64,000 nt of DNA from an uncultured Chloroflexia bacterium (GTDB lineage Bacteria; Chloroflexota; Dehalococcoidia; DSTF01; JACRBR01), in assembly GCA_963843685.1 (NCBI GenBank), contig CAWJLO010000008.1, positions 202,027 to 266,026 on the forward strand. The letters run 5' to 3'. Of the stretch, positions 4,778-48,087 are shown piece by piece. The position numbers were made by a program, and so were the translations under genes. The number at the start of each line of letters is the position of its first letter. Position 1 is the first letter of the stretch. The notes under the pieces were generated by a model. It was not told the origin of the DNA. It was given only the letters and a program-made list of their open reading frames with translations, and ran no database searches.

Positions 4778-4798
4778 GACGATTCTCCTCCCCGAACG

Positions 4799-6721: not shown

Positions 6722-6723
6722 AG

Positions 6724-7521: not shown

Positions 7522-7740
7522 GCTAGAGAACCTCCGGCGCGCACACCACGGGTCGACAACTGGCGTCGGCCACGAGAGCTCGGCTGGCGCGGTGCCCGGG
7601 ACGCAGCATGCGGACTCCCTCGGTTCAAGTCGCCGACGGCGAATTATTCCCGCCGCATCGCGTACGGTCAAGGGTTCGTGACTTTTCCCACAATTGACGC
7701 GACCAACGAACGGCGCGTGCGGCCGAATCTGAGGCAGGCG

Positions 7741-9587: not shown

Positions 9588-9814
9588 AGCCGAGCGCGCG
9601 CAAGAGACCGGCGCGGTTTCACTCCTGACTGAAGGTGCGATACGGACATGAGGCCGTTCGTGACCGCCATCACGAGTAACACGAGGCACGTGCGGGGTCA
9701 AGCGAGATGGGAGTTCATGAAGGATCACCCGCCGCGTTGACACTGAACCGAACGCCGCCAAGAATAACTCGGCCTGACGGAGAGCGCTGAACGGGGAAGG
9801 AAGGTTGACACAAC

Positions 9815-10927: not shown

Positions 10928-10930
10928 GCG

Positions 10931-33589: not shown

Positions 33590-34377
33590 TGGAGGCGCTC
33601 CAGCAGCGCCTTGCACGCGAGTATGCCGTCACGCTCCGGCAAACGTTCGCCTTCGTACTCAATTCCGACGGAGCCGCGGTAGCCTGCCTCGTCAACGATG
33701 CCCATCATCCGGCCGAAATCGATCTTCGTCTCGTTGCCGCGCTCGTCGAAGTCGTAGCACTTGGCGCTCACGGCCTTGGCACGGGGCATCATGCGGCGGA
33801 CGGCGTCGTAGCGGTCGACGGTGTCGGGGAAGTTTCCGAAGTCCGGGAGCGTGCCGAAGCGCGGATGGTCGACGCGGGCCATGAGCTCCATCAGCCACGC
33901 CGGATCGGACGAGAGGCCCCAGTGGTTCTCGATGAGGACGTTGATGCCCGACGCGTCGGCGTATTCGACGAGAGCGGCGAAACTCTCGGCGCAGCGGTCG
34001 AGCGCGTCTGCATCCCCCTCCTGCGCGCCCGTGTTGCACCGGATCGAGTGGCATCCGAGGACGGCAGCGATATCGACCCATTTGTGGTGATTCTTCGCGG
34101 CCTGCATACGGCTGGCACGCTCAGGCCCGGCCATGCTGCCCTCCCCGTCGCACATGATGAGGAGGATCTCGACGCCGGCGTCCTCGGCACGCTTGCGGAG
34201 TTGCTTCAGGTAGGCGTACTGCGGGGAGGGGAAGAAGGTGTTGACCAGTTCGAGCGCACCGATGCCGACGTCGTGGCAGAGATCGACCATGCCGAGCTGG
34301 TCGATCTCCTTCGCAAAGAACATGCGGTGCATCGACCAAGCGGCCAGTGAGACGTCGAACTTCTTCGGGTCAGCCAT
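33586..34377 (-). CDS. Sugar phosphate isomerase/epimerase (xylose isomerase-like TIM barrel).
   Basis: 263 aa with AP-endonuclease-2/TIM-barrel-like sequence (INVLIENHWG, GIEYEG). Confidence 0.8.
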   Translation of the reverse strand: MADPKKFDVSLAAWSMHRMFFAKEIDQLGMVDLCHDVGIGALELVNTFFPSPQYAYLKQLRKRAEDAGVEILLIMCDGEGSMAGPERASRMQAAKNHHKWVDIAAVLGCHSIRCNTGAQEGDADALDRCAESFAALVEYADASGINVLIENHWGLSSDPAWLMELMARVDHPRFGTLPDFGNFPDTVDRYDAVRRMMPRAKAVSAKCYDFDERGNETKIDFGRMMGIVDEAGYRGSVGIEYEGERLPERDGILACKALLERLQ

Positions 34378-34452
34378 CGGATGCCCCTCCCGCGAAACGA
34401 ACGTGCGGAAGCGTACGCGATCGGGGCGTAAGGGTGAAGCCAGGGAGTGACG

Positions 34453-35154
34453 CTAGCTGAGCCGGGCCTGCACCGCGTCACTTCGGAGCTCGCGAAGGGC
34501 GTCGCGGGCGATCCAGCGACCGGCACGCGTGTCCGTCGCGAGGATCTGCTCGGCCGTCTTGATGGCGGCGGCGTTGAGGCGACGGTTGCGTTTGCCGATC
34601 TGGCGGAGCGCCCAGTTGACCGCCTTCTTGACGAAGTTCCGGTCGTCGCCCGACTCGCGCAGAATTACGGGCAGGAACTGGAGCAGGCTGGCGTCCGGCG
34701 CCTTCTTGTCGTGGACGGCGAGGGCCGCCATCAACACGAAGCCGGCGCGTTTCACGTACTCGCGCCTCGCCGCGCTCCACTGAAACGCCTTGTCGTAGGC
34801 GAACGGGGTCTTGTCGAAGAGCACGCTGCAGCAACCGTCGACGACGTCCCAGGAGTCGAAGTCAGCGGCCCAGCGGTCCATCTGGCGCCGCGTCACCTTC
34901 GCTGAATCGTCAACCATGGCCGCGAGGATGCGTGCCTCGTGGATGCCGCTGTCCCAGAGTTCGAGGGCAAGCGCATGGTTGCGGCCCAGGCGTTTCGCCA
35001 GGGCGCGCAGCGTCGGGATGGAGATGCCGAGCGTGTTGTTCGAACTGATGCCGTAGCGGGTCATGCCCTCGACGTTGCGCGGGTTCGCCTGCGAGCGCAG
35101 CTCCGCAATGACGGCGGCCACATCCATTGGCTCAGGGTACACGCGACGACGCAT
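34453..35154 (-). CDS. DNA alkylation repair enzyme (AlkD/AlkC-like HEAT-repeat glycosylase).
   Basis: HEAT-like repeats and sequence typical of the DNA alkylation repair family (ELWDSGIHEARILA, WALRQIGKRN). Confidence 0.7.
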   Translation of the reverse strand: MRRRVYPEPMDVAAVIAELRSQANPRNVEGMTRYGISSNNTLGISIPTLRALAKRLGRNHALALELWDSGIHEARILAAMVDDSAKVTRRQMDRWAADFDSWDVVDGCCSVLFDKTPFAYDKAFQWSAARREYVKRAGFVLMAALAVHDKKAPDASLLQFLPVILRESGDDRNFVKKAVNWALRQIGKRNRRLNAAAIKTAEQILATDTRAGRWIARDALRELRSDAVQARLS

Positions 35155-35169
35155 TGGAGCGCCCGGCAG

Positions 35170-37026
35170 CTACTGCCTGCGGGCGAGGCGGGCCCGGTCG
35201 ACCTGGGCGAGGGCACGCTTCCTGAGACGCAGGCTCGCCGGCGTCACCTCCAACATCTCGTCATCGCCGATCCACTCCAGCGCCTGCTCCAGCGACAGCC
35301 TGCGCACAGGCATGAGCTGGATGGCGATGTCCGACGTCGACGAGCGGATGTTGGTGAGCTTCTTCTCTTTGGTGATGTTGACGTTGATGTCGGACTCGCG
35401 GGCGTTCTCGCCGACGACCATGCCCTCATAGACCTGATCGCCGGGTTCCACGAACATCTCGCCTCGCTCCTGCGCGTTCTCGATCGCGTATCCCGTGACC
35501 TTGCCGTTGCGGTCAGCGACGAGCGCGCCGGTGATCCTGTGTTCGATCTCGCCCTGCCACGGCTCGTATCCGTCGAAGAGGTGGTTGAGGAGGCCGGTGC
35601 CGCGGGTATCGGTGAGGAACTGGCTACGGAAGCCGATCAGGCCCCGTGAGGGGATGCGGAACTCCAGGCGGACGCGGCCAGTGCCGTGGTTCACCATGTT
35701 GAGCATGCGGCCCTTTCGGATCGAGAGCTTCTGAGTGACGATGCCGACGTAGTCCTCGGGACAATCGACGACCAGGTGCTCCATCGGCTCGTGGCGCGCG
35801 CCATCAATCTCGCGTGTGATCACCTCTGGCTTGCTCACTGACAGTTCGTAGCCCTCGCGCCGCATCATCTCGATCAGGATGGCCATCTGGAGCTCGCCGC
35901 GGCCGGAGACCTTGAAGCTGTCCGTCGACTGGACTTCCTCGACGTGCAGCGCGACGTTGGTGAGGATCTCCCGCTGGAGGCGGTCACGCAGGTTGCGCGA
36001 CGTGACGAACTGGCCCTCTCGGCCGGCGAAGGGCGACGTATTGATGGAAAACATCATGCTCACCGTGGGTTCATCAACGGTGACGCGAGGCAGCGCGCGA
36101 GGATCGTCGGGGTCGGTGATAGTGTCGCCGATGTTGACCTCGTCAAAGCCGGCGAGCGCGACGATGTCGCCGGGGCCCGCCTCCGGCACCTCCACCCGCT
36201 CGAGGCCTTCGAATGCGTAGAGGTACGTGACACGTGCCCGGCCGACGCTGCCGTCTTCGCGCACGACACCGACGTCTCCCTTCGCGCGGACGTTGCCGTT
36301 CACGATGCGGCCAACGGCGAGGCGTCCAACAAACTCGGAGTAGTCAAGGTTCAACACCAGCATCTGCAGCGGGATGCCGGGGTGATAGGCAGGCGCGGGA
36401 ATGTTGCGAATGATCTCGTCGAAGAGCGGCTTGAGCTGGTGGTCCTCACCTTCCGGCGTGAGGCGACAGATGCCTTCGCGGGCGATGGTGTACAGCACGG
36501 GGAAATCGAGTTGGTCTTCGCGCGCGTCGAGGTCGATGAACAGGTCATAAATCTCGTTCAGCACCTCCTGGGTTCGCGCGTCCTTGCGATCGATCTTGTT
36601 GATCACGACGATCGGCGGCAGGCCGAGCTCGAGCGCCTTCTTCAGCACGAAGCGCGTCTGCGGCAGCGGGCCCTCGCTGGCGTCGACGAGCAGCAACACG
36701 CCGTCAACCATCTTGAGGGTCCGTTCAACCTCGCCGCCAAAATCAGCGTGCCCCGGCGTGTCGACGATGTTGATCTTGTACCGGCCGAACCGGACGGACG
36801 TGTTCTTGGCGAGGATCGTGATGCCCTTCTCGCGCTCGAGGTCGTTCGAGTCCATGACGCGCTCGACGACTTCCTGGTTCTCGCGGAAGACACCGCTTTG
36901 CCACAGCATGGCGTCGACCAGCGTCGTCTTGCCATGGTCGACGTGCGCGATGATGGCGATGTTGCGGATATCGTCGCGGACGGCGGAAGTCTGCTCCGCG
37001 GCGCTCGTCGTCTGGGGGTGGCTCAT
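35170..37026 (-). CDS. typA: Translational GTPase TypA/BipA.
   Basis: G1 [10 protein letters not shown]3 DTPGHADF, and an EF-G-like domain order. Confidence 0.9.
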
Positions 37027-37194
37027 CCTTCTCCTTCATGCGGTCGCGCGGACAGACGCCATCGATTGCGCGTGCGCACGCCGGTGGATTCGTAGCAGCT
37101 TCGCGGGGATCCGGCTATAGGGGGAACGGAGGAACCGCGGTCGCCATACAGTGCATCGATCATACCAGATGCGATTGGCACCTGCCGCAGTCAA

Positions 37195-37653
37195 TCACCG
37201 CAGCGTGGTCGCGCCACTGTAAGGGCCGCCGGGCGCCCACATGTTCCAGTGCGCTGCCGCGGCCCACGCCTGCGCGGCGTTGGCCCAATCGAGGTATTTG
37301 GCGTTATCACCGTAGTAGGCGGCCTTCGCTAGGCCGACGTACACCATGACAATGGAGATGTTGTACTCGGCGCCATCACTGCCGACGACGATCGGCGCAG
37401 CGAGATCACGTCCGTAACGGTCAACGCGTACGGCGTCGTAGTCGAGGCGGGCCTCGGTGCCCGGGGGAAGAAAGATGTTGTTGAGCGCGGCCTTCGCCCA
37501 TTGGCCTCCGCAATCGCTCAGCTCCTGGGCGTTGATCTGGAGCATGCGGACGTGCTTGCCGCCGATGCAGACGAAGGTATCACCGTCGATCACGCGTTCG
37601 ACGGTGCAGGTCGTCGGCGCGGCTTGCGCCTGACGCGGGGCACGCGCGAACAC
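37195..37653 (-). CDS. Thermonuclease (SNase-like) family protein.
   Basis: VIDGDTF motif and a TNase-like core. The in-frame upstream sequence looks like a signal peptide but lacks a canonical start codon. Confidence 0.7.
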   Translation of the reverse strand: MFARAPRQAQAAPTTCTVERVIDGDTFVCIGGKHVRMLQINAQELSDCGGQWAKAALNNIFLPPGTEARLDYDAVRVDRYGRDLAAPIVVGSDGAEYNISIVMVYVGLAKAAYYGDNAKYLDWANAAQAWAAAAHWNMWAPGGPYSGATTLR

Positions 37654-37778
37654 GGGCCAGACAAGGACGGCGGCGAGCGCAACGGCCGGCAGCGTCCATG
37701 GTCGGAAGGGGCCCTGCTTCCAGATCGGCGCGCGGCACCGCTGGTCGTCGGCATCTGGCCGCTCAGTCGGGCGTCTCG

Positions 37779-38306
37779 CTAGTCTTTCCAGATCGGGTAC
37801 TGCTGGGCACGGCGGAGCCGGAAGTCCGTCTCGGGGAGGCGGAATCCCAGCGCCCGAACTTTCTTCAGCGTCGCCTCGGCCTGCTTGCGCTCGGTCGCAT
37901 TCAGGGCCGCCTGGAAGAGCTCCCCGTACAACTCTTTCGTGATCTGCACGACCTCTTCGGCGATCTTGCGGCCCGACGGGGTCAGCTCAAGTCCGACGGC
38001 ACGGCGGTCGTCAGGATCGGGCTGCCGCTGCACCCATCCGCGCCCTTCGATGCGATGCAGGATGCCGGTGATGCTCTGCGTCTCCTGGAACAGCAACGTC
38101 GCGACTGCGCTTGGCTTGATCGGCTCGGACGAGAACATGAGGACCACGAGCACGCGTGCCTGCGAGGCGGAGACGCCGAGGTGATAGATGCGGCGCTCCA
38201 GGAGCTTCCACGACATCCAGTACACCTCACTGACGAGCGCCCATGGCATCATCGCCGGATCCATGAATGTCGGTGCAGACGCGGACGGCTGCGAACGCTT
38301 AGGCAT
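37779..38306 (-). CDS. MarR-family transcriptional regulator.
   Basis: wHTH (SASQARVLVVL...ITGILHRIEGRGWVQR). Confidence 0.8.
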   Translation of the reverse strand: MPKRSQPSASAPTFMDPAMMPWALVSEVYWMSWKLLERRIYHLGVSASQARVLVVLMFSSEPIKPSAVATLLFQETQSITGILHRIEGRGWVQRQPDPDDRRAVGLELTPSGRKIAEEVVQITKELYGELFQAALNATERKQAEATLKKVRALGFRLPETDFRLRRAQQYPIWKD

Positions 38307-38420
38307 GTTCAGGGCCTCCTTCAGCGATCAACCCTCATCGCATGGTCGATATGGCCGGCGTCTCAACCTTACCGCTGAGTGGTTCGCCGATCAGCGGTCG
38401 CCCAGGTCCGCGGCCGGCGC

Positions 38421-38498
<78 letters not shown>

Positions 38499-38604
38499 GC
38501 GATCCGCGCCAGTGTATCACTACGATCCTGCGCCTTCGATTGGGGGTGCGCCAGCCGATCTCGCGAGCGATGTCAACCGCACGACGCGCATCGGCGCGAC
38601 GTGC

Positions 38605-38820
38605 TCATCGCGCGGGCGCGGCGACGTTCTGCCTCTTGCTCGCTCGTGGCGTTGCGGTCAGGAGCGGCAACCTTCGCTCCGGGAAGGTGGCGGGTACGAC
38701 GGGCATTCCCATGAACGAGGTCGCCGCAAGTGCGGAGAACGGCTCCGGGACGGCTTCGTGCAGCTGCTCGGCGAGGGAGACCATGCGCTCCAGGGCGATC
38801 TGCTTGTTCAGGATCAGCAT
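38605..38820 (-). CDS. Possible small hypothetical protein (~71 aa).
   Basis: GC3-biased frame MLILNKQIALERMVSLAEQLHEAVPEPF... It has no clear SD and the C-terminal third is low-complexity. Confidence 0.25.
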   Translation of the reverse strand: MLILNKQIALERMVSLAEQLHEAVPEPFSALAATSFMGMPVVPATFPERRLPLLTATPRASKRQNVAAPAR

Positions 38821-38949
38821 CGCCGGGGACTTTCGCCGCCGGGGCGACGCGCCGCCATGCGGGAGAGCCCTTAGCCGAGGGGGAGATCGCATGGGGACGG
38901 CGGGGGGTTATCGCGCGCTAAGGATTGGGTGAATCTGACGGCTGCGACG

Positions 38950-39888
38950 TTATGTCGTGTGGGATTGGGCGGGGCGGGCGGCGGCCACGAGCTCGCGGAG
39001 GTGCTGGATCCTGTGGTCGCGGAGGTGGCGCTCGATGCCTTCGAGGACGTGGATGGGGGCGAGGGGGTCGCGGAAGGTGGCGGTGCCGACCTGGACGGCA
39101 GAGGCGCCGGCGAGCAGGAATTCGACGGCGTCTTCGCCGGTGGAGATGCCGCCGCAGCCGATGACGGGGACGTCGACGGCGGAGGAGACCTGCCAGACCA
39201 TGCGGAGGGCGACGGGCTTGAGCGCGGGGCCGGAGAGGCCGGCGAAGGTGCGGGCGATGCGGGGCTTGCCCGTCGCGGCGTCGATGGACATGGCCTGGAG
39301 GGTGTTGATGACGCAGAGGGCATCGGCGCCGGCTTCGACGACGCGGCGGGCGATGGCGACGATGTCGGTGACGTTCGGGGTGAGCTTGACGATGACGGGG
39401 AGCGAGCTGGCGCGGACGCAGGCGGCGGTGACGGCGGCGGCGACCTCGGCGTCCTGGCCGAACTCCATGCCGCCCTGCTGGGCGTTCGGGCTGCTGATGT
39501 TGAGCTCAAGGCCGGCGATGCCGGGGACGCCATCGAGGGCGGCAGCGCAGTCGCCGTACTCTTCGACGGTGCTGCCGAGGATGCTGACGATGACGGGCAC
39601 CTTCCAGCGCTCCCATGTGGGCGCCATGTCGCGGATGAGCTTGTCGACGCCGATGTTCTGGAGGCCGATGGAGTTGAGCATGCCGGCGGGGGTCTCGTCG
39701 ATGCGGGGGGCGGGGCTGCCGGCGCGGGGCCGGAGGGTCGTGGTCTTCGAGACGATGGCGCCGAGACGCTGGATGTCGAAGACGCGGGGCCAGTCGACGC
39801 CGTAGCTGAAGGTGCCGGAGGCGACCATCACGGGGTTGGCGAGCGTGAGGGAGCGCTTGCCCGAGGCGAGATCGACGGAGAGGTCCAT
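38950..39888 (-). CDS. pyrD: Dihydroorotate dehydrogenase (class 1 catalytic subunit).
   Basis: 312 aa TIM-barrel DHODH (NSIGLQN, active-site Cys in SSPN, GGISTGEDA). Confidence 0.9.
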   Translation of the reverse strand: MDLSVDLASGKRSLTLANPVMVASGTFSYGVDWPRVFDIQRLGAIVSKTTTLRPRAGSPAPRIDETPAGMLNSIGLQNIGVDKLIRDMAPTWERWKVPVIVSILGSTVEEYGDCAAALDGVPGIAGLELNISSPNAQQGGMEFGQDAEVAAAVTAACVRASSLPVIVKLTPNVTDIVAIARRVVEAGADALCVINTLQAMSIDAATGKPRIARTFAGLSGPALKPVALRMVWQVSSAVDVPVIGCGGISTGEDAVEFLLAGASAVQVGTATFRDPLAPIHVLEGIERHLRDHRIQHLRELVAAARPAQSHTT

Positions 39889-39954
39889 GTGCGCGGGGCC
39901 CTTCGGTGATTTGCCGGAGTATAGCGGGCGTGCGGCGTCGATCGATGGGAGGGG

Positions 39955-40020
39955 CGCTGCGCCCTCTGCACTTCCGCCTTGGCGCTCCGCGCCCTCCTCT
40001 CCCGTCGCCTCCGGCGCTCT
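39955..40020. repeat. Copy 1 of a ~70-bp direct repeat flanking the ABM gene.
   Basis: GGGAGGGGCGCTGCGCCCTCTGCACTTCCGCCTTGGCGCTCCGCGCCCTCCTCTCCCGTCGCCTCCGGCG is ~80% identical to 40476..40545. Confidence 0.6.
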
Positions 40021-40315
40021 ACGGCGCTGTAGCGGCGACGATGACTTCGCCGACGGTGCGAACCTGTTCGCTGGCGAGATGCGGGGCGACGTTCTGGGCG
40101 AACCAGCCGGGGCCGATGATGGCGCCGCCGTTCTGGGCGTCCGCCGCGGTGTCCCAGAGGATGACGACGGCGGCTCGATCGTCGGCTTCCTTCACGTAGT
40201 AGAAGGCGCGGAAGCCGGATAGGCCACGAATGAGGGGAAGGAGGCCGGACTCGAGCTTCGGGCGGAGCTGCTCTACGGGCATGTCGAGGTGGAGGTGGTT
40301 GATGACGGCGTGCAT
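40019..40315 (-). CDS. ABM/Dabb-like small protein (98 aa).
   Basis: ATG at 40315 with AGGAG 9 nt upstream. Sequence MHAVINHLHLDMP...AVVILWDTAAD is typical of ABM-fold proteins. Confidence 0.6.
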   Translation of the reverse strand: MHAVINHLHLDMPVEQLRPKLESGLLPLIRGLSGFRAFYYVKEADDRAAVVILWDTAADAQNGGAIIGPGWFAQNVAPHLASEQVRTVGEVIVAATAP

Positions 40316-40475
40316 GTGTGCGGCTCCTGCTGATGAGTGTTTTCGTACAGTATCCACGAAGGACGGGCGTGACCGCGACTATATGTTCTCAACATTTTCG
40401 CTTGCCTCACCCTGTTGTGCCGGGTGGTGGCGAGCTGAGGCGCGGATCGGTGGTGGGGGCGGAGCTGCCTTGCCG

Positions 40476-40545
40476 GGAGGGCGGCGCCTTCGGCATTTTC
40501 CGCCTTGGCGCTTCGCGCCGCCCTCTCCGGTCGCCTGCGGCGACA
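40476..40545. repeat. Copy 2 of the ~70-bp direct repeat, followed by a CTCTCCC-ACAAGG-GGAGAGGG hairpin.
   Basis: GGGAGGGCGGCGCCTTCGGCATTTTCCGCCTTGGCGCTTCGCGCCGCCCTCTCCGGTCGCCTGCGGCG. Confidence 0.6.
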
Positions 40546-40927
40546 CCCTCTCCCACAAGGGGAGAGGGAGGTGACGGCGGTGGGGCACGGCGGAGGAGCG
40601 GGGAGTGTGACCTCGCCGCCGGTCGGGTGGATCAGTGGCCGTGCGGAGTGGTCGCCGGTGCGTGGTTGACCTCACCCCCCGGCCCCCTCTCCAGCGGTCT
40701 GGCGAGGGGGAGCTTGTGTCGGGGCGATGAGGTGCGGTGTGGGGCTGGTGCGGCGGAGCGAGCGAAGGGGGCTCTCCTTCGGCGAGTGTGCCACGGGCAC
40801 GCGGGGCAGCAGCCGCTACCACGGACGGGAGTCTGCTCGTCGGGACGCGAGTGGCGATTTGCACGCGGGAGCGTGGCGGGGCGTCGTGCCATACTGGTTG
40901 CGGGGAGAGCACACAGGAGGAGCGACC

Positions 40928-41155
40928 GTGGGGCGGAAAGAGATCGAGGCGCTGATCAAGGTGTTGCAGCAGCAGCTGGCGGCGGGGCGCGACAGCGTGG
41001 TCACAGGATCGTGGCAGATCATCTACAGCCGGGACCACGACGCCTTCCTGTTCGAGAAGTGCGAGGTGGGGGGCGGGTACTGCGAGGAGCGGCCGAGCGT
41101 GGTGTCGGTGACGGGGAAGGTGCTGGACAAGGGCGGGCCGCTGCTGGGGAACTAA
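40928..41155 (+). CDS. Small hypothetical protein (75 aa).
   Basis: GTG with an excellent SD (ACAGGAGGAGCGACC GTG). Coding-like composition. Confidence 0.55.
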   Translation: MGRKEIEALIKVLQQQLAAGRDSVVTGSWQIIYSRDHDAFLFEKCEVGGGYCEERPSVVSVTGKVLDKGGPLLGN

Positions 41156-41386
41156 TCGTTCATCGTTTGCGGTGGACGGTGACGGGTGATGCAGTGTCCG
41201 CTGTCGCGTACCCTGCATCACCTTTGAAGCGGGCCGGGGGACACCCCCGGAGCCCCCCGGCAGGGGGCGCTGCGCTCCCTGCACCCCCGGCTATGGCGCC
41301 GGGGAGTCGAGGGTGAAGGACTGAAGAGGGGCGTTACCAGCGGGGATAACGGGCGGTTCAGCAGCGGATGAGAATCGGAGGAACGC

Positions 41387-41821
41387 ATGACGGTACAGGG
41401 TGAGTATGCGGCGAGTCCGCTGAAGTTTGCGGCGGACCAGGTGGAGTTGTACGAGCGGACGGGCGGGGCCGAGGGCAACCTGTTGATGGGGAAGCCTGTG
41501 GTGATCCTGACGACGCTGGGGCGGAAGAGCGGGAAGGTGCGGAAGACGCCGCTGATGCGGGTGGAGAAGGACGGGACGTACGCAGTGGTGGCGTCGATGG
41601 GCGGGGCGCCGAAGCACCCTGTCTGGTACCTCAACCTGATGGAGTCGCCGGAGATCACGCTGCAGGACGGCCCGGAGGCGCGCCCGGTGAAGGCGCGCGA
41701 GGTGCACGGCGAGGAGAAGGCGCGCTGGTGGGCGATCGCGTGCGAGGCGTGGCCGGCGTACGCGGACTACCAGGCGAAGACTGAGCGGGAGATCCCGGTG
41801 GTGGTGCTGGAGGCGCGGTAG
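41387..41821 (+). CDS. Deazaflavin(F420)-dependent nitroreductase family protein (Ddn/PNPOx-like split barrel).
   Basis: Motifs VVILTTLGRKSGKVRKTPL, YAVVASMGGAPKHPVWYLNL and ARWW are typical of the F420H2-dependent nitroreductase (DUF385) family. Confidence 0.8.
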   Translation: MTVQGEYAASPLKFAADQVELYERTGGAEGNLLMGKPVVILTTLGRKSGKVRKTPLMRVEKDGTYAVVASMGGAPKHPVWYLNLMESPEITLQDGPEARPVKAREVHGEEKARWWAIACEAWPAYADYQAKTEREIPVVVLEAR

Positions 41822-42130
41822 GGAACCGTGGGCGTTCTTCGAAGCATTCGCCCGCCGCGGCACGTGGCGGTCGCATTCTGCGAGTCGCACGACGCGGGCC
41901 AACAGGGACGATGAGCCTTCCGCCGAGCTCGCAGTGATTGCGTCAGCCGCGCTGTGGTGTGAGGGTGTAGATGTGGGTTTTAGAGGCATTCGCTGTCGTG
42001 GTTGGCGGTGACCCGTACACCACGACCCAACGCCCCGCATTCTCCTCGCTGACGCGGGAGACGAGCGCTCTCCGCTGATGCTCTTGGGTAACATGGGCTG
42101 GTAGATCCGTAGACCCAGTGCGGGTGCAAC

Positions 42131-42910
42131 ATGAACGACAACAAGGCGACGTGGACCCGACTCCGCTTGTTCAACGCGCTCATGGCGCTCGTTCACAGTG
42201 GCCAAGGCATCGCCATCCTCCTACTGAGTAACGAGGCCACGGTCCCAGTTCGGACGTCGTTTCTCCGCTTCAACGAGGGGCAGCAGGCACTCGAGACGTA
42301 CACGCGCGACGTGTTCGATCTGCAGCTGGCACCCCTGGTCGCGGCGTTTCTCTTCATTTCGGCGATCGCCCACGCCCTGGTCGCCCTTCCCCGGGTGTTT
42401 GGATGGTACGTCGCCAACGTGCAGCGCTCGATCAACTACGTCCGCTGGTGGGAATACGCCGCGAGCGCGTCTCTCATGATCGCCGTGATCGCGATGCTTA
42501 CGGGGATGTACGACCTTGGCAGCCTCATCCTCATCTTCTCGCTGAATGCGACGATGCTGCTGTTCGGGTTGTTGATGGAGACGCAAAACCGGCCCGGCAA
42601 CCGGGTCACGTGGCTCCCGTTCGTGTTCGGCTGTATGGCGGGTACCGTGCCGTGGGGCGTCATCGCCCTCTATTTGTGGTCGCCGGGCACGGGCCCCGGA
42701 GAGCCGCCCGCGTTCGTATACGCGATCTTCTTCTCTCTGTTTGTCTGGTACTCGCTCTTCGCCCTCAATATGTGGCTCCAGTATCGCCGCGTAGGCCCAT
42801 GGCGGGACTACGTGTTCGGCGAGTACGGATACATCGTACTTAGCCTGACGGCGAAGTCGCTCCTCGCATGGCAGGTCTTCGCGGGCGCCCTTACGCTACC
42901 CGTAAATTGA
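42131..42910 (+). CDS. Heliorhodopsin (7TM retinal protein, inverted topology).
   Basis: Block-by-block similarity to the prototype heliorhodopsin 48C12 (SINYVRWWEYAASASLMIAVIA; NATMLLFGLLME; LPFVFGCMAGTVPWG; FVYAIFFSLF; YIVLSLTAKSLLAWQVFAG carries the Schiff-base Lys in TM7). Length 259 aa. Confidence 0.9.
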   Translation: MNDNKATWTRLRLFNALMALVHSGQGIAILLLSNEATVPVRTSFLRFNEGQQALETYTRDVFDLQLAPLVAAFLFISAIAHALVALPRVFGWYVANVQRSINYVRWWEYAASASLMIAVIAMLTGMYDLGSLILIFSLNATMLLFGLLMETQNRPGNRVTWLPFVFGCMAGTVPWGVIALYLWSPGTGPGEPPAFVYAIFFSLFVWYSLFALNMWLQYRRVGPWRDYVFGEYGYIVLSLTAKSLLAWQVFAGALTLPVN

Positions 42911-43047
42911 CCCTGTTGCCGGCGCGCTCCCCAATACGAACGACCTGACCGCGAGCGGGCTCGACACAGCTTGTTCGCGAATCCGCGACGCCGAGCAGAA
43001 CGCGAAACTCAGGATCCACCCAGCTCCTCCGGCCAGCGCGCAATACT

Positions 43048-43944
43048 GTGCCGGTGAGGCGATTCGGAGTCCTGGTGTTGGCGCTGTCCCTGGCGGCGTG
43101 CACTCCGCAGGGGAGGCCGGCCTCTACGCCGGCCAATCCCACTACCGCGGGGACAACCGCGCGGCCGACGGAGGCGAGCGCGGGCACTGTGCCGCCACCG
43201 CGCTCCACCAGCACAACCGGCAGGGTCGTCGGTCCGATCAGCCAAGCAGAGGCACTTGACGGGCACCTGCCGATCCACGGACTCGCGCTCGTCTTTTCGA
43301 CCGGCGAGTTGTACCTGTTCACCAGTCTCAGCCCGACATCCTGGGCGGACGACGAGACAGTCGTGGCACCGTCGCCGCCTGAAGGGGGACAGGTCTTTCC
43401 CGGCGCCGCGCATCAAGGAGCGCATCTGCTGGGACTGGACGGCACCGACACGTCCATCGACGCGCGCCCTCCCGCGACGGCGGAGCCATACCCTCCATCG
43501 ACGACAAGCACGGATGGGCAGTGGCGACTTACGAGCGACGGGAGCGACGCTTACGTGGAAGAGATCACCAGTGGCCGGCGGGTGACGGTACCAGCAGCGG
43601 CAACCTACCTGTGGTCGCCGCTTGGTCATCTGCTCGCTATCGGTGGCGGGCGATGCGGCGACGTGCCACTGTACATCGTCGATCCCGACGGCACGACGCC
43701 GGTGCGGAAGGTCGAGCTGGGAGGAGGATCGATTGCCCGCTCGTACACGTGGCGACCAGATGCGAGCGGGTTCGCCCTCGCCACGCTGTCCACAATCGTG
43801 TTCGTCCGCGCAGACGATCTGGCGATTCGGCGGCTCGCGCCGGTTGCTCCCGCAACCCTCCTCGGCGAGCCGGTCTTCGGCCCGTGGAGCCCGTCGGGCG
43901 CATACCTGCTGTTCGGTCTGTACTTCGGCCGCGCGTGTCCGTAG
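43048..43944 (+). CDS. Hypothetical lipoprotein, possibly a beta-propeller fold.
   Basis: GTG start, lipobox LSLAAC, and a Pro/Thr-rich linker before the globular domain. Confidence 0.6.
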   Translation: MPVRRFGVLVLALSLAACTPQGRPASTPANPTTAGTTARPTEASAGTVPPPRSTSTTGRVVGPISQAEALDGHLPIHGLALVFSTGELYLFTSLSPTSWADDETVVAPSPPEGGQVFPGAAHQGAHLLGLDGTDTSIDARPPATAEPYPPSTTSTDGQWRLTSDGSDAYVEEITSGRRVTVPAAATYLWSPLGHLLAIGGGRCGDVPLYIVDPDGTTPVRKVELGGGSIARSYTWRPDASGFALATLSTIVFVRADDLAIRRLAPVAPATLLGEPVFGPWSPSGAYLLFGLYFGRACP

Positions 43945-44043
43945 CGGGCCCGCGGGGAGGCGCGCCATAGGGGCCGGCCGGCGAACCCACCTGTTTCGAG
44001 CGTGGTCTGCCCCTGGTCTAGCCGCTCCCTCGCCCCTGCAGAG

Positions 44044-44140
44044 CGTGCGGCGATGGCGCGATGGACGTTTTGGGTCGTTGCGTTCGTGCCAGGGGCGGTG
44101 TTCGCGGCGACGGTGGCGCAGAGGTGGCGGGGTCTCGACA
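44044..44140 (+). repeat. ~100-bp degenerate duplicate of the tauE 5' end (start codon plus first ~30 codons).
   Basis: ATGGCGCGATGGACGTTTTGGGTCGTTGCGTTCGTGCCAGGGGCGGTGTTCGCGGCGACGGTGGCGCAGAGGTGGCGGGG is ~85% identical to 45088..45185. Confidence 0.65.
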
Positions 44141-44278
44141 GGCGACATGGCGGTCTCGGAGGGAGTACCTTACCTTTGAACCGCCTAATCCGGGATCGGC
44201 AGGCTGTTCCGAGGCGCCGGGAATCGAGCGGCGCCCAGTGTTCGAGCAAGGTCGTCGTGAACTAGCGGAGGGACGGAC

Positions 44279-45013
44279 ATGAAGTGGGGCCGCAGACTGA
44301 CGATCGCCTTCTTGCTGGTGGCGCCGATCTTCCTGCTGGGCGCACGATGCATCGACCACGAGAGTCTACGAAAAGGCCCTGACGGCGATTGGCACCTGTA
44401 CGGTGAGATCCACAACGACACGAACGTCCAGGGCACGCAGATCCTCCTCCAGGGGACGCTGTACGATCCCTCCGGCAGGGTGATGGCTGTCGGTCAGACG
44501 TATATCTGTCCAGGGGATCTGTCGCCGGGCACGTTTTCGGTCTACGACATCCGGTTCAAGGACTCTTCGGCGATCGTTGGGCCCTTTGCACGCAAGATCA
44601 ACGTGCTGAGCGGCAAGGCGGTCCCAGAACATCTTCCGCCGCTGCCGGTGACCGACGTCAACTTCACGACCACGGCAACCCGAGCCTTCGACGGATCGGT
44701 GAACTGGGAGATCGTCTTCAAGTACTCACCGCCGCTGACGGGCCCGGTTTCGTCGGGGTCCATGGCTGGCTGCGTGGCGTTCTACGATGCTTCGGGCAAC
44801 GTCGTTTCGGTGGAGGGTCCGGACACACCGGGTATCGGAGGGTTCCACATCTCGGGTTACAGCCAAATCGTACGTGACATGGACCCGACCGTCCCGGCCG
44901 ACGCGGTTTCCTTCCGCGGGTTGTTCTGGTTTCCCCATTCGGACAGCGCTTTCTTCGAGTCCGACTATGCGCCCGTGATCTCCGACGCGGTCACGATCCC
45001 GGCAGAACCGTAG
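44279..45013 (+). CDS. Hypothetical secreted protein (244 aa).
   Basis: Signal peptide MKWGRRLTIAFLLVAPIFLLGARC. SD GAGGGACGGAC ATG. Beta-rich composition. Confidence 0.65.
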   Translation: MKWGRRLTIAFLLVAPIFLLGARCIDHESLRKGPDGDWHLYGEIHNDTNVQGTQILLQGTLYDPSGRVMAVGQTYICPGDLSPGTFSVYDIRFKDSSAIVGPFARKINVLSGKAVPEHLPPLPVTDVNFTTTATRAFDGSVNWEIVFKYSPPLTGPVSSGSMAGCVAFYDASGNVVSVEGPDTPGIGGFHISGYSQIVRDMDPTVPADAVSFRGLFWFPHSDSAFFESDYAPVISDAVTIPAEP

Positions 45014-45096
45014 CGCCGACTCTGTCCTCGGCCTGACGCCCAGCCGCCCGGCGGACGGCGCTACCTTCGCGTGAGCGCATCCGGCAGTATGGCGCG

Positions 45097-45837
45097 ATGG
45101 ACGTTTGGATCGTCGTGGTTGTGCTGGCGGCAGTGTTCGTGGCGACGGTGGCGCAGACGGTGGCGGGGTTCGGGTTCGCGCTGATCGTGGTGCCGGCGTT
45201 CGTGGCGGTGCTGGACGTGCGGGACGCGATCGTGCTGACGACGCTCGTCGGGATCATCAACAACGGCGTGCTGGCGTTCACGACGCGGCGTCACGTGCCG
45301 TGGGGGACGGTGACGCCGATGCTGCTCGGGGCGGCCGCGGGGATGCCGGTGGGGCTGGCGGTGCTGCTGCTGGCGCCGGCGGACGCGATCCGGATCAGCG
45401 TCGGGGTGGCGACGATCGTGATCGCGGGGGCGCTGGCGCGCGGGCTGCGGTTCCGGGACGCGAGCGTGGTGGCGGCGGCGACGGCGGGCGGGATCTCGGG
45501 GCTGCTGAACACGAGCGTGGGGATCAACGGGCCGCCGGTGGCGCTGTACCTGCAGGGGCGGGAGCTGCCGCACGGCGAGTTTCGGGGGGCGCTGGCGGTG
45601 TTCTTCGTCGTGAGCAACGTGATCGCGATCGCGATCTTCGTCGTCTCGATGATCATCACGTCGACGGCGCTGGCGCTGTGGGCGGCGGCGGTCCCGGCGG
45701 TGGGTGTGGGGAGCTTCGTGGGGCACCGGCTGGTGCATCGGGTGAACCCGGTGGTGTTCCGGCGGCTGGTGTACGTGTTGCTGCTGGCGTCGGCGCTGTC
45801 GGCTATCGGGTCGTCGGTGGCGCGAATGGCGGGGTGA
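45097..45837 (+). CDS. Sulfite exporter TauE/SafE family membrane protein.
   Basis: Eight TM helices with the TauE-type internal repeat (VAGFGFALIVVP..., GGISGLLNTSVGINGPPVALYL). Confidence 0.8.
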   Translation: MDVWIVVVVLAAVFVATVAQTVAGFGFALIVVPAFVAVLDVRDAIVLTTLVGIINNGVLAFTTRRHVPWGTVTPMLLGAAAGMPVGLAVLLLAPADAIRISVGVATIVIAGALARGLRFRDASVVAAATAGGISGLLNTSVGINGPPVALYLQGRELPHGEFRGALAVFFVVSNVIAIAIFVVSMIITSTALALWAAAVPAVGVGSFVGHRLVHRVNPVVFRRLVYVLLLASALSAIGSSVARMAG

Positions 45838-45937
45838 GGGCGGCCCTTCCGGAAGATGAGAATCTCATCGGAAGGCGGCGTGTGCGGGCGGGCGCCGTGA
45901 GGTAGGATGTGGTGCTTCACGTTTCGCGGGAGTCTCC

Positions 45938-46823
45938 ATGGCGCCACTTCTCCTCCATCTCGGCGGAACGTCGACGACCACCTGGTGGCACTGGCCGGTG
46001 CGAGCCGACGTGATCATGACGTGCCTCGTCATGCTGGCGGCGTACTTCTACGTGATCACGCAGCTGCGGGAGGTCTGGTCGGACGCGGGGCGCGTGCGGC
46101 GGTCGCAGATCGCGTGTTTCGTGACGGGCGTGCTGGTGATGTACCTGGCCACCGGCTCGCCGATCGACACGGTAGGCGACAACTTCCTGTTGGCGGCGCA
46201 CATGCTGCAGCACATGCTGCTGCTCTTCGTGGTGGCGCCGCTGCTGCTCGCGGGGACGCCAACGTGGGTGTGGCAGCGGATGCTGCGGCGGCCGAGCCGT
46301 GCTGCGCGTGGCGAAGGTGATCGTGCATCCGGTGATGGCGCTGGCGATCGTCTCAGGGACGTTCATCGCGGTGCACCTGCCGGCGGTGCTGGACTTCCAG
46401 CTACAGCACGACTCGGCGCACCTGTTCGGGCACATCGCGCTGACGGCGGCCGGGTTCGTGCTGTGGTGGCCGGTGCTGAGCACGGTGCCGGAGTTGCCGC
46501 GGAGCTCGTACCCGGTGCAGATCGCGTACCTGTTCGTGCAGTCGCTGGCGCCGTCGATCCTGGCGTCGTTCGTCACGTTCGCGGACGGGGCGGTGTACTC
46601 GTTCTACGCGCAACAGCCGCGGCTGTGGGGGCTCTCGGCGGTGACGGACCAGCAGATCGCGGGGGGCATCATGAAGCTCTTCGGGCTGGTGGCGACGTGG
46701 TGGTTCATCGCGCTGGCGTTCCATCGCTGGTATCGCCTGGAGACGCAGGAGGCGGAGAAAGAGCCGCTCTGGAGCGAGGTCGAGGAAGAGCTGCAGAGCA
46801 TGGGGCTGACGTCGGGGCACTGA
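45938..46823 (+). pseudogene. ctaG: Caa3-type cytochrome c oxidase assembly factor CtaG (Bacillus type), split by a single-base frameshift near 46290-46300.
   Basis: N-terminal 120 aa in the frame of ORF 45938 (...HMLQHMLLLFVVAPLLLAGTPTWVWQRML). The C-terminal 175 aa in the frame of ORF 46299 (VLRVAKVIVHPVMALAIV...) continue the same family. Combined length is ~295 aa. Confidence 0.65.
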
Positions 46824-46939
46824 GCCGCTGGCGGGCTCGTCACTCCACTGACACACGACACTTCTTCTCCGCAGGGCCGGGGCCCTACTTCCGAATACAC
46901 TATGTCGATGATCCTGCTCACGACACACGCGAGTCGCGC

Positions 46940-48061
46940 GTGATCGCGCTGGCGCCGCTGGGCGTGGCGATGATCGGGCTGGTGCTGTGGGACGCGTTCG
47001 AGACGGTGGTGCTGCCGCGGCGCGTGGACCGGCGATTCCGTCCGGCGCGGTGGTTCTATCGCACGTTCTGGCGGACGTGGCGGCTGGGCGCCGAGAAGAC
47101 ATCGGGCGATCAGCGAGAGTGGCTGCTGGCGGTGTTCGGGCCGCTCTCGGTGCTGATGCTGTTCGTGTTCTGGGCGTCGCTGTTGATCCTGGGGTTCGCG
47201 TTGGTGCAGGTGTCGGCGGGCTCGGGGCTGATCGTGGGCGGGCGCGAGGCGAACTTCGGGACGGCGATCTACCTCAGCGGGACGACGTTCTTCACGCTGG
47301 GGCTGGGGGACGTGGCGCCGACGACGGGGTTCGCGCGGGCGATCACGGTGATCGAGGCGGGCACGGGGTTCAGCTTCCTGGCGCTGGTGATCGGCTACCT
47401 GCCGATCCTGTACCAGACGTTCTCGCGGCGCGAGCTGAACGTGACGCTGCTGGACGCGCGGGCGGGATCGCCGCCGACGGCCGGGGAGATGCTGCGGCGG
47501 TACGGCGCATCCGGGGACGGAGCGTCCAAGGACGCGACGGAGCTGGAGCGGCTGCTGCTCGACTGGGAGCGTTGGGCGGCGGAGCTGCTGGAGAGCCACG
47601 TTTCGTACCCGATCGTGGGGTACTTCCGGTCGCAGCACGACCACCAATCGTGGCTGGGGGCCGTGACGGCGATGCTCGACTTCTCGGCGCTGGTGCTGGC
47701 GTGCGAGCGGGACAACCGGCTACGGCGTCCGGCGGAGCTTGCGTTCGCGATGTCGCGGCACGCGGTGGTCGACCTGATGCAGACGTTCAAGCTGGAGCTG
47801 CACGACCCGGAGCCGGAGCGGCTGGGGGTGGCCGACCGCGCGCGGCTGGAGCCGATGCTGGCGGCGGCGGGCATGTCATCGCTGGCGGACGGCGCAGCGT
47901 GGGCGCGGCTGACGGAGCTGCGGGCGATCTACGAGCCGTATACGGCGGCGCTGGGGCTGTTCTTCCTGATCGACCTGCCGCCGTGGCTGATCGACAAGCG
48001 GCAGGCGGACAACTGGCAGACGAGCGACCGCGGCTCGGTGCTGCCGGCGTCGTGGGGTTAG
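46940..48061 (+). CDS. 2TM ion-channel (K+ channel-like pore, Ion_trans_2) protein with a C-terminal cytoplasmic domain.
   Basis: TM1, a pore helix with filter TTFFTLGLGDVAP, and TM2. The start is uncertain: GTG 46940 or ATG 46970. Confidence 0.7.
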   Translation: MIALAPLGVAMIGLVLWDAFETVVLPRRVDRRFRPARWFYRTFWRTWRLGAEKTSGDQREWLLAVFGPLSVLMLFVFWASLLILGFALVQVSAGSGLIVGGREANFGTAIYLSGTTFFTLGLGDVAPTTGFARAITVIEAGTGFSFLALVIGYLPILYQTFSRRELNVTLLDARAGSPPTAGEMLRRYGASGDGASKDATELERLLLDWERWAAELLESHVSYPIVGYFRSQHDHQSWLGAVTAMLDFSALVLACERDNRLRRPAELAFAMSRHAVVDLMQTFKLELHDPEPERLGVADRARLEPMLAAAGMSSLADGAAWARLTELRAIYEPYTAALGLFFLIDLPPWLIDKRQADNWQTSDRGSVLPASWG

Positions 48062-48087
48062 CCGCCGCCCAAGGCACGAGCCCTCGT

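Follow-up and report, generated by a model that had tools for sequence, protein, structure and literature searches.

Heliorhodopsins are retinal-binding light sensors whose hosts are monoderm prokaryotes, and the Chloroflexota are a monoderm phylum. Solved structures include those of the prototype 48C12, from a freshwater actinobacterial fosmid (PDB 6SU3, 6UH3), and of TaHeR, from Thermoplasmatales archaeon SG8-52-1 (PDB 6IS6, 7U55), and for TaHeR spectroscopy and retinal capture have been demonstrated. Quite what heliorhodopsins do is only partly solved, but the statement of an earlier note on the DNA considered here, that the family has no settled function, is in part out of date, since regulatory roles towards glutamine synthetase (AbHeR, PMC9529153), photolyase (TfHeR, PMC9769723) and the ABC transporter OmrDE (OcHeR, PMC11109279) have been published, and proton transport has been demonstrated for a viral member (V2HeR3, PMC9448325). 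Groups of heliorhodopsins with "MerR" neighbours have been described (PMC11109279), as have "cobalamin-binding proteins" among heliorhodopsin neighbours (bioRxiv 10.1101/2021.02.16.431466), and to be without a retinal-synthesis partner nearby is the published norm for the family (Chazan et al., bioRxiv 10.1101/2021.02.16.431466).

The heliorhodopsin gene described here lies in a window of 64 kb, the term being used throughout for the whole stretch of DNA that was analysed. With a probability of roughly 0.72 it is read as a canonical and functional heliorhodopsin, a resident chromosomal gene of the Dehalococcoidia (Chloroflexota) that forms a stand-alone unit and whose mechanism can be proposed by analogy with its homologues. 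It then adds one canonical heliorhodopsin to those already known from its phylum, and the features that had seemed special about it are either the norm of the family (no blh or crt genes, no obvious partner) or not real (its composition).

An intact heliorhodopsin gene

The coding sequence occupies 42131..42910 of the plus strand (259 amino acids, the interval including the stop codon), and its identification as a genuine, intact heliorhodopsin is fully supported. The Pfam profile PF18761 (Heliorhodopsin) matches it with an E value of 1.8e-96 and a score of 322.6 bits (cutoff 26.7), residues 11-254 of the protein spanning profile positions 1-242 of 242, and 5014 homologues were retrieved at E<=1e-3, with PF18761 in all among the matches listed. 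The ATG is the sole possible start 5' of M18, a stop codon lying at 42110-42112; a 242-residue variant starting at M18, which is not on record, is unlikely because R12 and N15, both 5' of it, are invariant residues of the family. The block-by-block match to 48C12 seen in the earlier note is confirmed by alignment with 6su3 (E 3.1e-49, 42% identity, 100/239 aligned residues), but TaHeR is the closer of the two (6is6, E 1.2e-63, 44% identity over 244 aligned residues). Structural superposition agrees with the profile search in upholding that note's assignment to the family, since an AlphaFold2 model (pLDDT 90.7, pTM 0.86) superposes in Foldseek on 6IS6 with TM 0.90/0.93 and an rmsd of 1.8 Å and on 48C12 with TM 0.88, as against only ~0.6 for type-1 rhodopsins. 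Seven transmembrane helices are predicted (3-32, 66-98, 103-123, 129-152, 162-183, 194-219 and 227-254), and strands 37-48 and 53-65 of the model form a long beta-hairpin in the first extracellular (TM1-TM2) loop. On the model 11 of the loop Lys and Arg residues fall on the predicted cytoplasmic side (N-terminus, ICL1, ICL2 and ICL3) and 3 outside, and by this positive-inside count an inverted topology is predicted, with a cytoplasmic N-terminus and the C-terminus outside.

The TM7 Schiff-base lysine that the earlier note had placed in SLTAKSLLAWQ is K242 (codon aag, 42854..42856, plus strand), equivalent to K241 of 48C12 and K238 of TaHeR, and the conserved glutamate that it had placed in WWEYA is E108 in TM3 (codon gaa, 42452..42454, plus strand), the single Schiff-base counterion and the equivalent of 48C12 E107. 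The lysine is invariant in 121/121 close homologues, and so is the glutamate (121/121). The polar cluster of H22, S77, H81, N102, E108 and S238 corresponds to H23, S76, H80, N101, E107 and S237 of 48C12 and is invariant or nearly so among the homologues (n=121), while the wider set of residues mapped onto 48C12 (N15, H22, S77, H81, Y93, N102, R105, W106, E108, Y109, S112, N139, M142, W175, S238 and K242) is mostly invariant across the same 121. Scored by the criteria of bioRxiv 10.1101/2025.11.27.691015 the fenestration motif is present as F164, C168, G171, Y207 and A211, and ICL3 carries R219, R220, R225 and D226, conserved charges that match those in PMC11109279. Judged by a dN/dS of 0.086 against the closest relative, L001, the gene is under strong purifying selection.

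Gene neighbourhood and the regulator linkage of sister lineages

Upstream of the heliorhodopsin gene stands qr (41387..41821, plus strand), whose product is an F420H2-dependent quinone reductase of the Ddn family (PF04075, E 6.8e-50) and so of the F420 type that the earlier note had recognised. Downstream, as that note also had it, are a lipoprotein and secreted proteins: a predicted lipoprotein (MPVRRFGVLVLALSLAAC...; 43048..43944, plus strand) with the lipobox LAAC, and an ORF at 44279 for a secreted protein with a signal-peptide-like N-terminus, neither of them with a Pfam family. The qr gene is a syntenic anchor, as it precedes the heliorhodopsin in L001 likewise, and it is near the heliorhodopsin in no locus beyond L001/L002. 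Only the 3' third of the lipoprotein gene is kept in L001 (43639-43947 against 10880-11185, 84.5% by blastn), and the gene is absent from all other heliorhodopsin loci except that of L002. Among the loci compared there is no evidence for a functional link of the heliorhodopsin with qr or with the lipoprotein, and a conserved association with these or with the secreted protein, seen only in L001/L002, was set aside with no functional link proposed.

No adjacent co-oriented partner of the glutamine synthetase, photolyase, ABC transporter, MerR, DegV or DUF2177 groups is found in the window, and of the families known to be associated with heliorhodopsins (glutamine synthetase, photolyase, NAD synthetase, TerC, DegV, DUF2177, DUF2238 and MerR-B12) there is none in the 64 kb. 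A scan of ~60 window ORFs for the crt, blh, polyprenyl-synthase and RPE65 families likewise gave none, as the earlier note had said for blh and crt, and this is normal for heliorhodopsins; the sole prenyltransferase in the window is UbiA/CtaB, adjoining ctaA and the cox genes.

With gaps of 309 bp upstream and 137 bp downstream the gene appears monocistronic, and hence a stand-alone transcription unit. A blastn alignment of window 42058-42967 with L001 9929-10837 takes in the 73 bp 5' of the start (42058..42130, plus strand), which are ~76% identical and the sole part of the spacer kept there. This part is the likely promoter-proximal and ribosome-binding region, with GGGTG 6 nt 5' of the ATG as the likely ribosome-binding sequence, and it may hold the promoter; a scan 5' of the gene found no sigma-70 consensus promoter, and a scan for intrinsic terminators gave terminator-like matches at chance rate. 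The remainder of the spacer (41822..42057) is without a detected feature and matches nothing in L001 or at the other loci. A riboswitch or other structured RNA was rejected for the spacer, where Rfam returned nothing at gathering threshold or at E<=1 and the RNA fold z-score was +0.47. Nor does the spacer look like a decayed gene, as tblastn with the MerR-B12, cupin, TfoX, glyoxalase and other neighbours of the relatives gave chance-level matches only, and an HMM of five MerR-B12 proteins run against its six-frame translations scored 1.1 bits at best, where 200 shuffles have their 95th percentile at 1.4. The spacer and the operator region of L067 share 11 identical nt, TTAGAGGCATT; this match, with an expected chance occurrence of ~0.02, is taken as chance and is not kept in L070 or L007.

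In sister Chloroflexota a gene for a MerR protein with a B12-binding domain adjoins the heliorhodopsin in L007, L008, L067/68, L070/71 and the P0015 contig, and lies at <=10 kb from it in L009, L010, L013, L031, L035, L036, L062 and L064. The regulator of these relatives has the Wx9EH motif, and the genes for the heliorhodopsin orthologue and for this AdoB12 photoreceptor regulator of the CarH/LitR type are either translationally coupled or divergent. Operator-like TGTACA-N5-TGTACA and TTGTCTAGAC motifs occur in the intergenic regions of these loci, and regulator and operator features are found together in L007, L009, L067/68 and L070/71. The relatives' heliorhodopsins also stand beside genes for DUF4397, ECF sigma factor, cyclopropane-fatty-acid synthase, amine oxidase and DUF1365 proteins, and in L009 the order is ECF sigma factor, then heliorhodopsin. 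In a neighbour-joining tree without support values the proteins of the window and L001 nest inside this B12-regulator-linked Chloroflexota clade. Searched by tblastn, the window gave no match to MerR-B12, and the regulator gene is missing near the heliorhodopsin in L001 too. Searches of the 64 kb for TGTACA-N5-TGTACA (<=2 mismatches) and GTCAAGNNTTTGTCTAGAC (<=3 mismatches) gave 0 matches, and with no CarH-like operator motif anywhere in the window, light-regulated expression of its heliorhodopsin is unsupported.

The lineage of the window probably lost the linkage of heliorhodopsin and regulator through local rearrangement. A tentative extension, more doubtful than not and put forward as a suggestion, is that the heliorhodopsin of this clade was ancestrally an output or co-sensor of a CarH/LitR AdoB12 circuit, the window copy having become uncoupled beside qr at a recombination-prone site. 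Such a circuit might have joined the regulator and its TGTACA-N5-TGTACA operator to enzymes that modify membrane lipids and, in some cases, to an ECF sigma factor. If this were true, two green-light receptors would have been wired into one photo-oxidative-stress module, and the uncoupled heliorhodopsin of the window would act constitutively on some membrane partner. In the sister genome the site is marked by triplicated qr 3' ends.

Residence in the chromosome and proposed mode of action

The earlier note had taken the gene for a compositionally distinct mini-island of horizontal origin, with a GC3 visibly lower than that of its neighbours and a less GC-rich spacer upstream, and here the measurements go the other way. 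The gene has a GC3 of 0.835, where 51 window ORFs average 0.847 (z -0.16, rank 19/51), its GC3s is near the window average, and the Karlin codon-bias distance, 0.293, is below the mean of 0.365 for window ORFs; the codon usage is host-typical. The GC of the spacer, 0.641, is at the 27th percentile of 309-bp windows. The total GC of the gene, 0.615, does fall in the lowest 6% of 780-bp windows, because GC1 (0.577) and GC2 (0.435) are low, which is a matter of membrane-protein amino-acid composition; COX1 (0.568) and COX3 (0.554) have similar GC1, and the amino acids of the protein, coded with the codon usage of the window as a whole, predict a GC of 0.629, leaving a difference between observed and expected of -0.013 (rank 14/49). 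Across nine relatives the GC3 of the heliorhodopsin follows that of each host locus (0.78-0.96), and GC1 and GC2 are low everywhere.

That the heliorhodopsin, possibly together with the two secreted-protein genes downstream, was recently acquired as a horizontal mini-island is therefore improbable, a mini-island being unsupported by the typical codon statistics, the GC3 tracking in the nine relatives, the synteny with L001 and the restriction of the nearest heliorhodopsins to Chloroflexota. GC3 does dip across the heliorhodopsin (0.835), the lipoprotein (0.77) and the secreted protein (0.80) between flanks at 0.94 (qr), 0.95 (pyrD) and 0.96 (TauE), but the three values are well inside the window range, the cox genes being at 0.72-0.82. 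The region is also prone to rearrangement, with indels against L001 that involve an acyl-CoA dehydrogenase with DUF4272, a cupin and the truncated lipoprotein; in L001/L002 the last 57-73 bp of qr occur as three direct copies that bracket the cupin, and the heliorhodopsin with its lipoprotein fragment, and more distant heliorhodopsin relatives (~80% identical) sit in other gene contexts. Yet L001, the one relative close enough for this comparison, carries its heliorhodopsin gene at the same site, following qr, a hypothetical gene and pyrD as in the window, and the protein has diverged as its neighbours have (92.3% amino-acid identity for the heliorhodopsin, 91.7% for qr and 91.1% for pyrD). 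The higher dS of the heliorhodopsin against L001 (0.43, compared with 0.21 for pyrD and 0.11 for qr), which might be expected of an import, could come from weaker GC3 constraint or from allelic recombination.

Marks of insertion are missing as well: no integrase or transposase families occur in the window, neither the 3' end of qr nor the spacer has a second copy there, there is no flanking repeat or att-like duplication, and the tRNA-Pro gene (38422-38498), 3.6 kb away, is separated from the heliorhodopsin by pyrD. The nearest heliorhodopsins are all from Chloroflexota (Chloroflexota/Dehalococcoidia MAGs), the host's own phylum, and the named relatives of the window BipA are Dehalococcoidia; BipA is near the heliorhodopsin in L062, and COX1, rhodanese and HAD genes are near it in L013. 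For an empty-site test the next relatives of TauE, 63-71% identical, are in unrelated contexts. Contigs of the same-species MAG GCA_964418935.1 span window 32791-38735 and 44656-48870, and the heliorhodopsin interval lies outside them. Since its codon usage is host-typical and a related genome has it at the same site, the gene is an ordinary family member and not a recent import.

For the resident, canonical heliorhodopsin a mechanism may be proposed from what is established for 48C12, TaHeR and the partner-binding heliorhodopsins, the homologues 48C12 and TaHeR being only 42-44% identical to it. The protein would insert with its N-terminus in the cytoplasm and bind all-trans retinal at K242, the retinal being probably scavenged via the lateral fenestration residues given above, or else made by a non-local route. 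It would absorb green light with a maximum at ~540-550 nm, an expectation that follows from the match of the tuning positions M214 and A241 (positions as in PMC7807009) to TaHeR. After isomerisation the Schiff-base proton would pass to the internal cluster of E108, H22, H81, S77 and S238, no ion being pumped, and the protein would then enter a signalling state that lasts seconds. The positive cytoplasmic loops (R88, R99, R105; R154, R158; R219, R220, R225, D226) may be altered in this state, and the altered loops may in turn modulate a partner protein. Judged from the homologues, partner regulation via these loops is the most likely working mode, and the role of the protein is likely to be a part of the response to light and photo-oxidative stress.

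Other functions fit less well. A 2025 preprint has proposed, for heliorhodopsins generally, a two-antenna light harvester with an exogenous xanthophyll at the lateral fenestration, and the window protein does have the proposed carotenoid-site positions (aromatic F164 and Y207, small C168 and A211, and G171), no carotenoid or retinal genes are nearby, and in a monoderm host the site would face the medium. That light harvesting is its main function is nevertheless unlikely, as the proposal consists of docking and sequence motifs, and an antenna alone defines no output function and complements the sensory model rather than replacing it. A light-driven or light-gated ion transporter in the manner of V2HeR3, instead of a sensor, is still harder to credit: the rhodopsin fold with its internal polar network, proton transport by one heliorhodopsin subfamily (PMC9448325) and the want of an adjoining partner gene, as in viral heliorhodopsins (PMC11109279), would suit it, but the protein is closest to TaHeR and 48C12, which on established knowledge are without reported pumping (PMC11109279), it has the fenestration motif that the transporting viral subfamily is without (bioRxiv 10.1101/2025.11.27.691015), and in its internal proton-acceptor cluster both histidines are retained. 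The least credible reading is a relic gene, silent or in decay, cut off from its regulator and with no source of chromophore, for the loss of the MerR-B12 linkage of the sister lineages, the absence of a recognised promoter or operator and that of a retinal pathway from the window are set against an intact ORF with low dN/dS, every functional residue kept, and a start region and ribosome-binding site conserved with L001.

Comparison with known heliorhodopsins

In contrast to its likeness to the non-transporting prokaryotic heliorhodopsins, with which it has the fenestration motif and the histidine pair in common, the window protein shares with V2HeR3 the superfamily and the inverted seven-helix architecture, and the viral protein is not of the closest subgroup. 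Among solved structures TaHeR is the best match, with the same Lys, Glu, His-His and Ser cluster, lateral fenestration residues common to both, and the same colour-tuning residues, the N213-M214 pair and A241 in window numbering. The differences are the archaeal host of TaHeR, a TM5-TM6 loop (SPGTGPGEPPA) that is 4 residues longer in the window protein, and Ser208 in place of TaHeR Asn204; the demonstrated properties of TaHeR are to be set against a protein known here from sequence and model. In 48C12 the residues H23, S76, H80, N101, E107, S237 and K241 are all matched, and the differences are Q213, which becomes M214, a blue-shifting variant according to PMC7807009, N207, which becomes S208, and S112, which becomes A113. 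Asn is the usual residue at the position of S208, and both reference proteins have it.

With the partner-regulating heliorhodopsins AbHeR, TfHeR and OcHeR the window protein shares positive cytoplasmic loops, its ICL3 charges resembling the class of R229, R233, R235 and D236 in OcHeR, and it differs in that none of their partner genes is adjoining or within the 64-kb window. To the heliorhodopsins with MerR or cobalamin-binding neighbours it is tied by its nesting among the CarH/LitR-coupled Chloroflexota proteins in the neighbour-joining tree, and from these it differs, as does L001, in being without the regulator gene and the operator motifs. The comparative value of the locus lies here, an orthologue with neither partner nor regulator being set beside heliorhodopsins in CarH/LitR operons, so that function intrinsic to the heliorhodopsin may be told from function that depends on the regulon; the contrast is not a surprising one, and with heliorhodopsin function partly solved such natural contrasts are useful.

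Gene call, fold and functional residues

The heliorhodopsin (HeR) gene is an uninterrupted ORF of 259 aa at 42131..42910 (+). The ATG at 42131 is the sole start codon between the in-frame stop at 42110-42112 and Met18, and a Met18 start would delete R12 and N15, both invariant in the family. The product matches the Pfam Heliorhodopsin profile PF18761 (E 1.8e-96, 322.6 bits, all 242 profile positions covered) and, in sequence, every solved heliorhodopsin. TaHeR (6is6) is matched at E 1.2e-63 and 44% identity and 48C12 (6su3) at E 3.1e-49 and 42%, which makes TaHeR, and not 48C12 as in the earlier note, the closest characterised relative. An AlphaFold2 model made from 46 homologues (mean pLDDT 90.7) has seven helices and, in the first extracellular loop, the long beta-hairpin that is usual in this family. 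Foldseek superposes it on 6is6 with a TM of 0.90 and an rmsd of 1.8 A, in contrast to only about TM 0.6 for type-1 rhodopsins. Profile, solved-structure matches and fold all uphold the original identification.

Mapped onto 48C12 numbering (48C12 equivalents in brackets), H22 (H23), S77 (S76), H81 (H80), N102 (N101), the counterion E108 (E107), S238 (S237) and the Schiff base K242 (K241) are invariant or almost so across 121 close homologues, which bears out the Schiff-base lysine and conserved glutamate named in the earlier note. Fenestration positions known from other heliorhodopsins are found (F164, C168, G171, Y207 and A211), and the third cytoplasmic loop keeps the conserved charged residues R219, R220, R225 and D226. 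Of the Lys and Arg residues on the model's loops, 11 face the predicted cytoplasm and 3 the exterior, which fits an inverted protein with its N-terminus inside. The colour-tuning residues M214 and A241 are shared with TaHeR (positions from PMC7807009), and by this likeness absorption would peak slightly to the blue of 48C12, at roughly 540-550 nm. With a dN/dS of 0.086 against the closest relative, HeR is under strong purifying selection. The gene is complete and selected, with every residue for retinal binding and an internal proton-acceptor cluster.

Composition and residency of the locus

The main novelty argument of the earlier note was that HeR is compositionally distinct, and so a horizontally acquired mini-island. 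The mean GC3 of 51 window ORFs, most of them Pfam-supported, is 0.847 (sd 0.076); HeR has 0.835 and ranks 19th. The "visibly lower" GC3 thus holds locally, against immediate flanks at the top of the window range (the F420H2 quinone reductase gene qr 0.94, pyrD 0.95, TauE 0.96), and not against the window, where HeR and the downstream lipoprotein and secreted-protein genes (0.77-0.835) sit mid-range. The Karlin codon-bias distance of HeR to the rest is 0.293, below the mean of 0.365. Total GC (0.615) does fall within the bottom 6% of 780-bp windows, because GC1 is 0.577 and GC2 0.435, and other polytopic membrane proteins are alike (COX1 GC1 0.568, COX3 GC1 0.554). The GC expected from amino-acid sequence and pooled window codon usage is 0.629, leaving an observed-minus-expected residual of -0.013 (rank 14 of 49). 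Nor is the 309-bp spacer between qr and HeR (41822..42130) GC-poor, at 0.641 (27th percentile). In nine related loci HeR GC3 tracks the host locus (0.78-0.96), with GC1 and GC2 low in all.

Window GC3 is itself strongly heterogeneous (1-10000 versus 38950-46823): the cox/ctaA/ABC-2 region has 0.72-0.82, and values rise to 0.94-0.96 in pyrD, qr, TauE and ctaG, whose codon-bias z-scores are very high (pyrD 18.5, TauE 13.7). The codon-usage outliers are these flanking genes and not HeR.

The closest homologue, P0001 (92% aa identity), comes from L001, a metagenomic contig of 13 kb with the gene order pyrD, two small hypothetical genes, qr, HeR, lipoprotein. Compared with the window proteins, its HeR is 92.3% identical, its qr 91.7% and its pyrD 91.1%, and so HeR diverged in step with the other two. 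The two versions differ by indels: L001 carries acyl-CoA dehydrogenase and DUF4272 before qr and a cupin gene between qr and HeR, and its lipoprotein (43048..43944 in the window) is truncated at the N-terminus; the region is rearrangement-prone, yet HeR is part of both. The window has no integrase, the HeR flanks are unrepeated and there is no tRNA junction, the sole tRNA (tRNA-Pro, 38422-38498) being separated from HeR by pyrD. In species-representative genomes the nearest HeRs are all from Chloroflexota MAGs (78-83% identity), and named relatives of the window BipA belong to Dehalococcoidia. A BipA copy with 100% identity is found on a 391.6-kb NCBI/ENA contig, together with this exact HeR. 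In distant Chloroflexota, L062 (2997-7187) has BipA some 2 kb from HeR, with MerR-B12 and DUF4397 in between, and L013 (9-1514, 10001-10723, 17844-18988) has COX1, rhodanese and HAD hydrolase genes no more than 10 kb from its HeR; in the window these four are 5-37 kb away. Such loose long-range synteny argues for long residence. Composition and residency together leave the horizontal-island reading unsupported, and recent arrival is unlikely; the gene call was correct, the evolutionary inference incorrect.

Synonymous divergence from L001 is uneven despite equal protein identities (91-92%), with dS 0.43 for HeR (window 42131-42907, L001 10001-10777), 0.21 for pyrD (38950-39888, 3752-4681) and 0.11 for qr (41387-41812, 8246-8671). 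Either a tighter constraint on GC3 in the genes where it is about 0.94 or earlier allelic recombination at HeR may account for this.

L001 carries three direct copies of the 3'-terminal 57-73 bp of qr (8618-8674, 9619-9691, 11188-11249), which bracket the cupin gene and the segment with HeR and the truncated lipoprotein, and every copy stops exactly at the last sense codon of the reductase. An independent Logan contig, L002, starts and finishes within such repeats (1-70, 1003-1075, 2572-2601); the window has only qr's own copy (41740-41812). The repeats could be a sign that recombination, site-specific or homologous, takes place at the qr 3' end. Right after the second L001 copy, at 9692-9740, a perfect 12-bp inverted repeat, CCCCCTCTCCAC-ACC-GTGGAGAGGGGG, looks like a terminator or REP-like hairpin and has no counterpart in the window.

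A fragmented same-species MAG, GCA_964418935.1 (97.8-98.8% nt identity), covers window 32791-38735 and 44656-48870 on contigs L074 and L075, and the pyrD-HeR-lipoprotein interval falls in its assembly gap (38735 to 44656), which fits strain-level variability and could equally be a coverage effect. In the window ctaG (caa3-type cytochrome oxidase assembly, 45938-46823) is split over two frames, one matching PF09678 positions 1-84 and the second positions 94-236, with a shift near 46297. L075 (98.8% identical) has one C fewer at 46297 and an intact 294-aa CtaG, and the window carries several further single-base indels relative to both contigs; a real pseudogene and an assembly indel error are therefore equally likely.

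Regulator linkage, its probable loss and a proposed role

Among about 60 window ORFs, Pfam scans detected neither a phytoene synthase or desaturase nor a lycopene cyclase, blh, RPE65-type oxygenase or polyprenyl synthase, and the single UbiA-family gene, placed beside ctaA and the cox operon, is therefore a heme O synthase. The absence of blh/crt genes reported earlier is correct but not distinctive: blh is rare beside HeRs, and the two co-occur mostly in genomes also encoding other rhodopsins (Chazan et al., bioRxiv 10.1101/2021.02.16.431466). Frequent HeR neighbours (GS, NAD synthetase, photolyase, MerR, TerC, ABC transporter, SDR, alpha/beta hydrolase, DUF2177 and DUF2238, PMC11109279; DegV, bioRxiv 10.1101/2021.02.16.431466) are none of them within the window, and L001/L002 are the only other loci where HeR has qr, the lipoprotein and the secreted protein near it.

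In sister Chloroflexota a MerR+B12-binding regulator immediately precedes HeR in L007 (9120-10777), L008 (3-1383), L067/68 (L067 5057-6729), L070/71 (L070 5121-6780) and the P0015 contig, in some with overlapping stop and start codons, and these HeRs are of the same clade as that of the window (75-84% identity). It lies within 10 kb of HeR in L009, L010, L013, L031, L035, L036, L062 and L064. L009 (8302-10753) runs regulator (-), operator-like motif, ECF sigma (+) and, directly after, HeR (+). The regulators bear Wx9EH, the motif of CarH-type AdoB12 photoreceptors, and their upstream regions have in common operator-like TGTACA-N5-TGTACA (11-bp period) and TTGTCTAGAC motifs. Accompanying genes include DUF4397, NAD-dependent epimerases, amine oxidase, DUF1365 and cyclopropane-fatty-acid synthase, and L067 goes on with FA-desaturase-like, amine oxidase, DUF1365 and CFA synthase genes. 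The set has the marks of a regulon for light and photo-oxidative stress, and neighbour surveys listing MerR-family and cobalamin-binding proteins agree (PMC11109279; bioRxiv 10.1101/2021.02.16.431466).

An NJ tree places the window/L001 HeR inside the regulator-linked clade, and this lineage has therefore probably lost the linkage. Neither the regulator gene nor its operator motifs were found in the window; the spacer holds no regulator remnant, Rfam family or unusual RNA structure, and a consensus promoter search for HeR found none. Only the last 73 bp upstream of the start are conserved with L001.

By analogy with its orthologues HeR may act in light-stress physiology. As in 48C12, TaHeR and partner-binding HeRs, green light would isomerise the chromophore, the E108/H22/H81 cluster would accept a proton, with no net transport, and a long-lived signalling state would let the basic loops modulate a cytoplasmic or membrane partner. 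The fenestration would take up retinal, possibly a xanthophyll too; that HeR is primarily an antenna-bearing harvester, a role compatible with the sensory one, is improbable. Ion transport is more doubtful still, and that a complete gene under purifying selection is a silent relic is scarcely credible. For heliorhodopsins both the phylum and the context type have been described before, and the only, modestly interesting angle is comparative, with HeR as a naturally uncoupled orthologue of the CarH/LitR-linked Chloroflexota heliorhodopsins.
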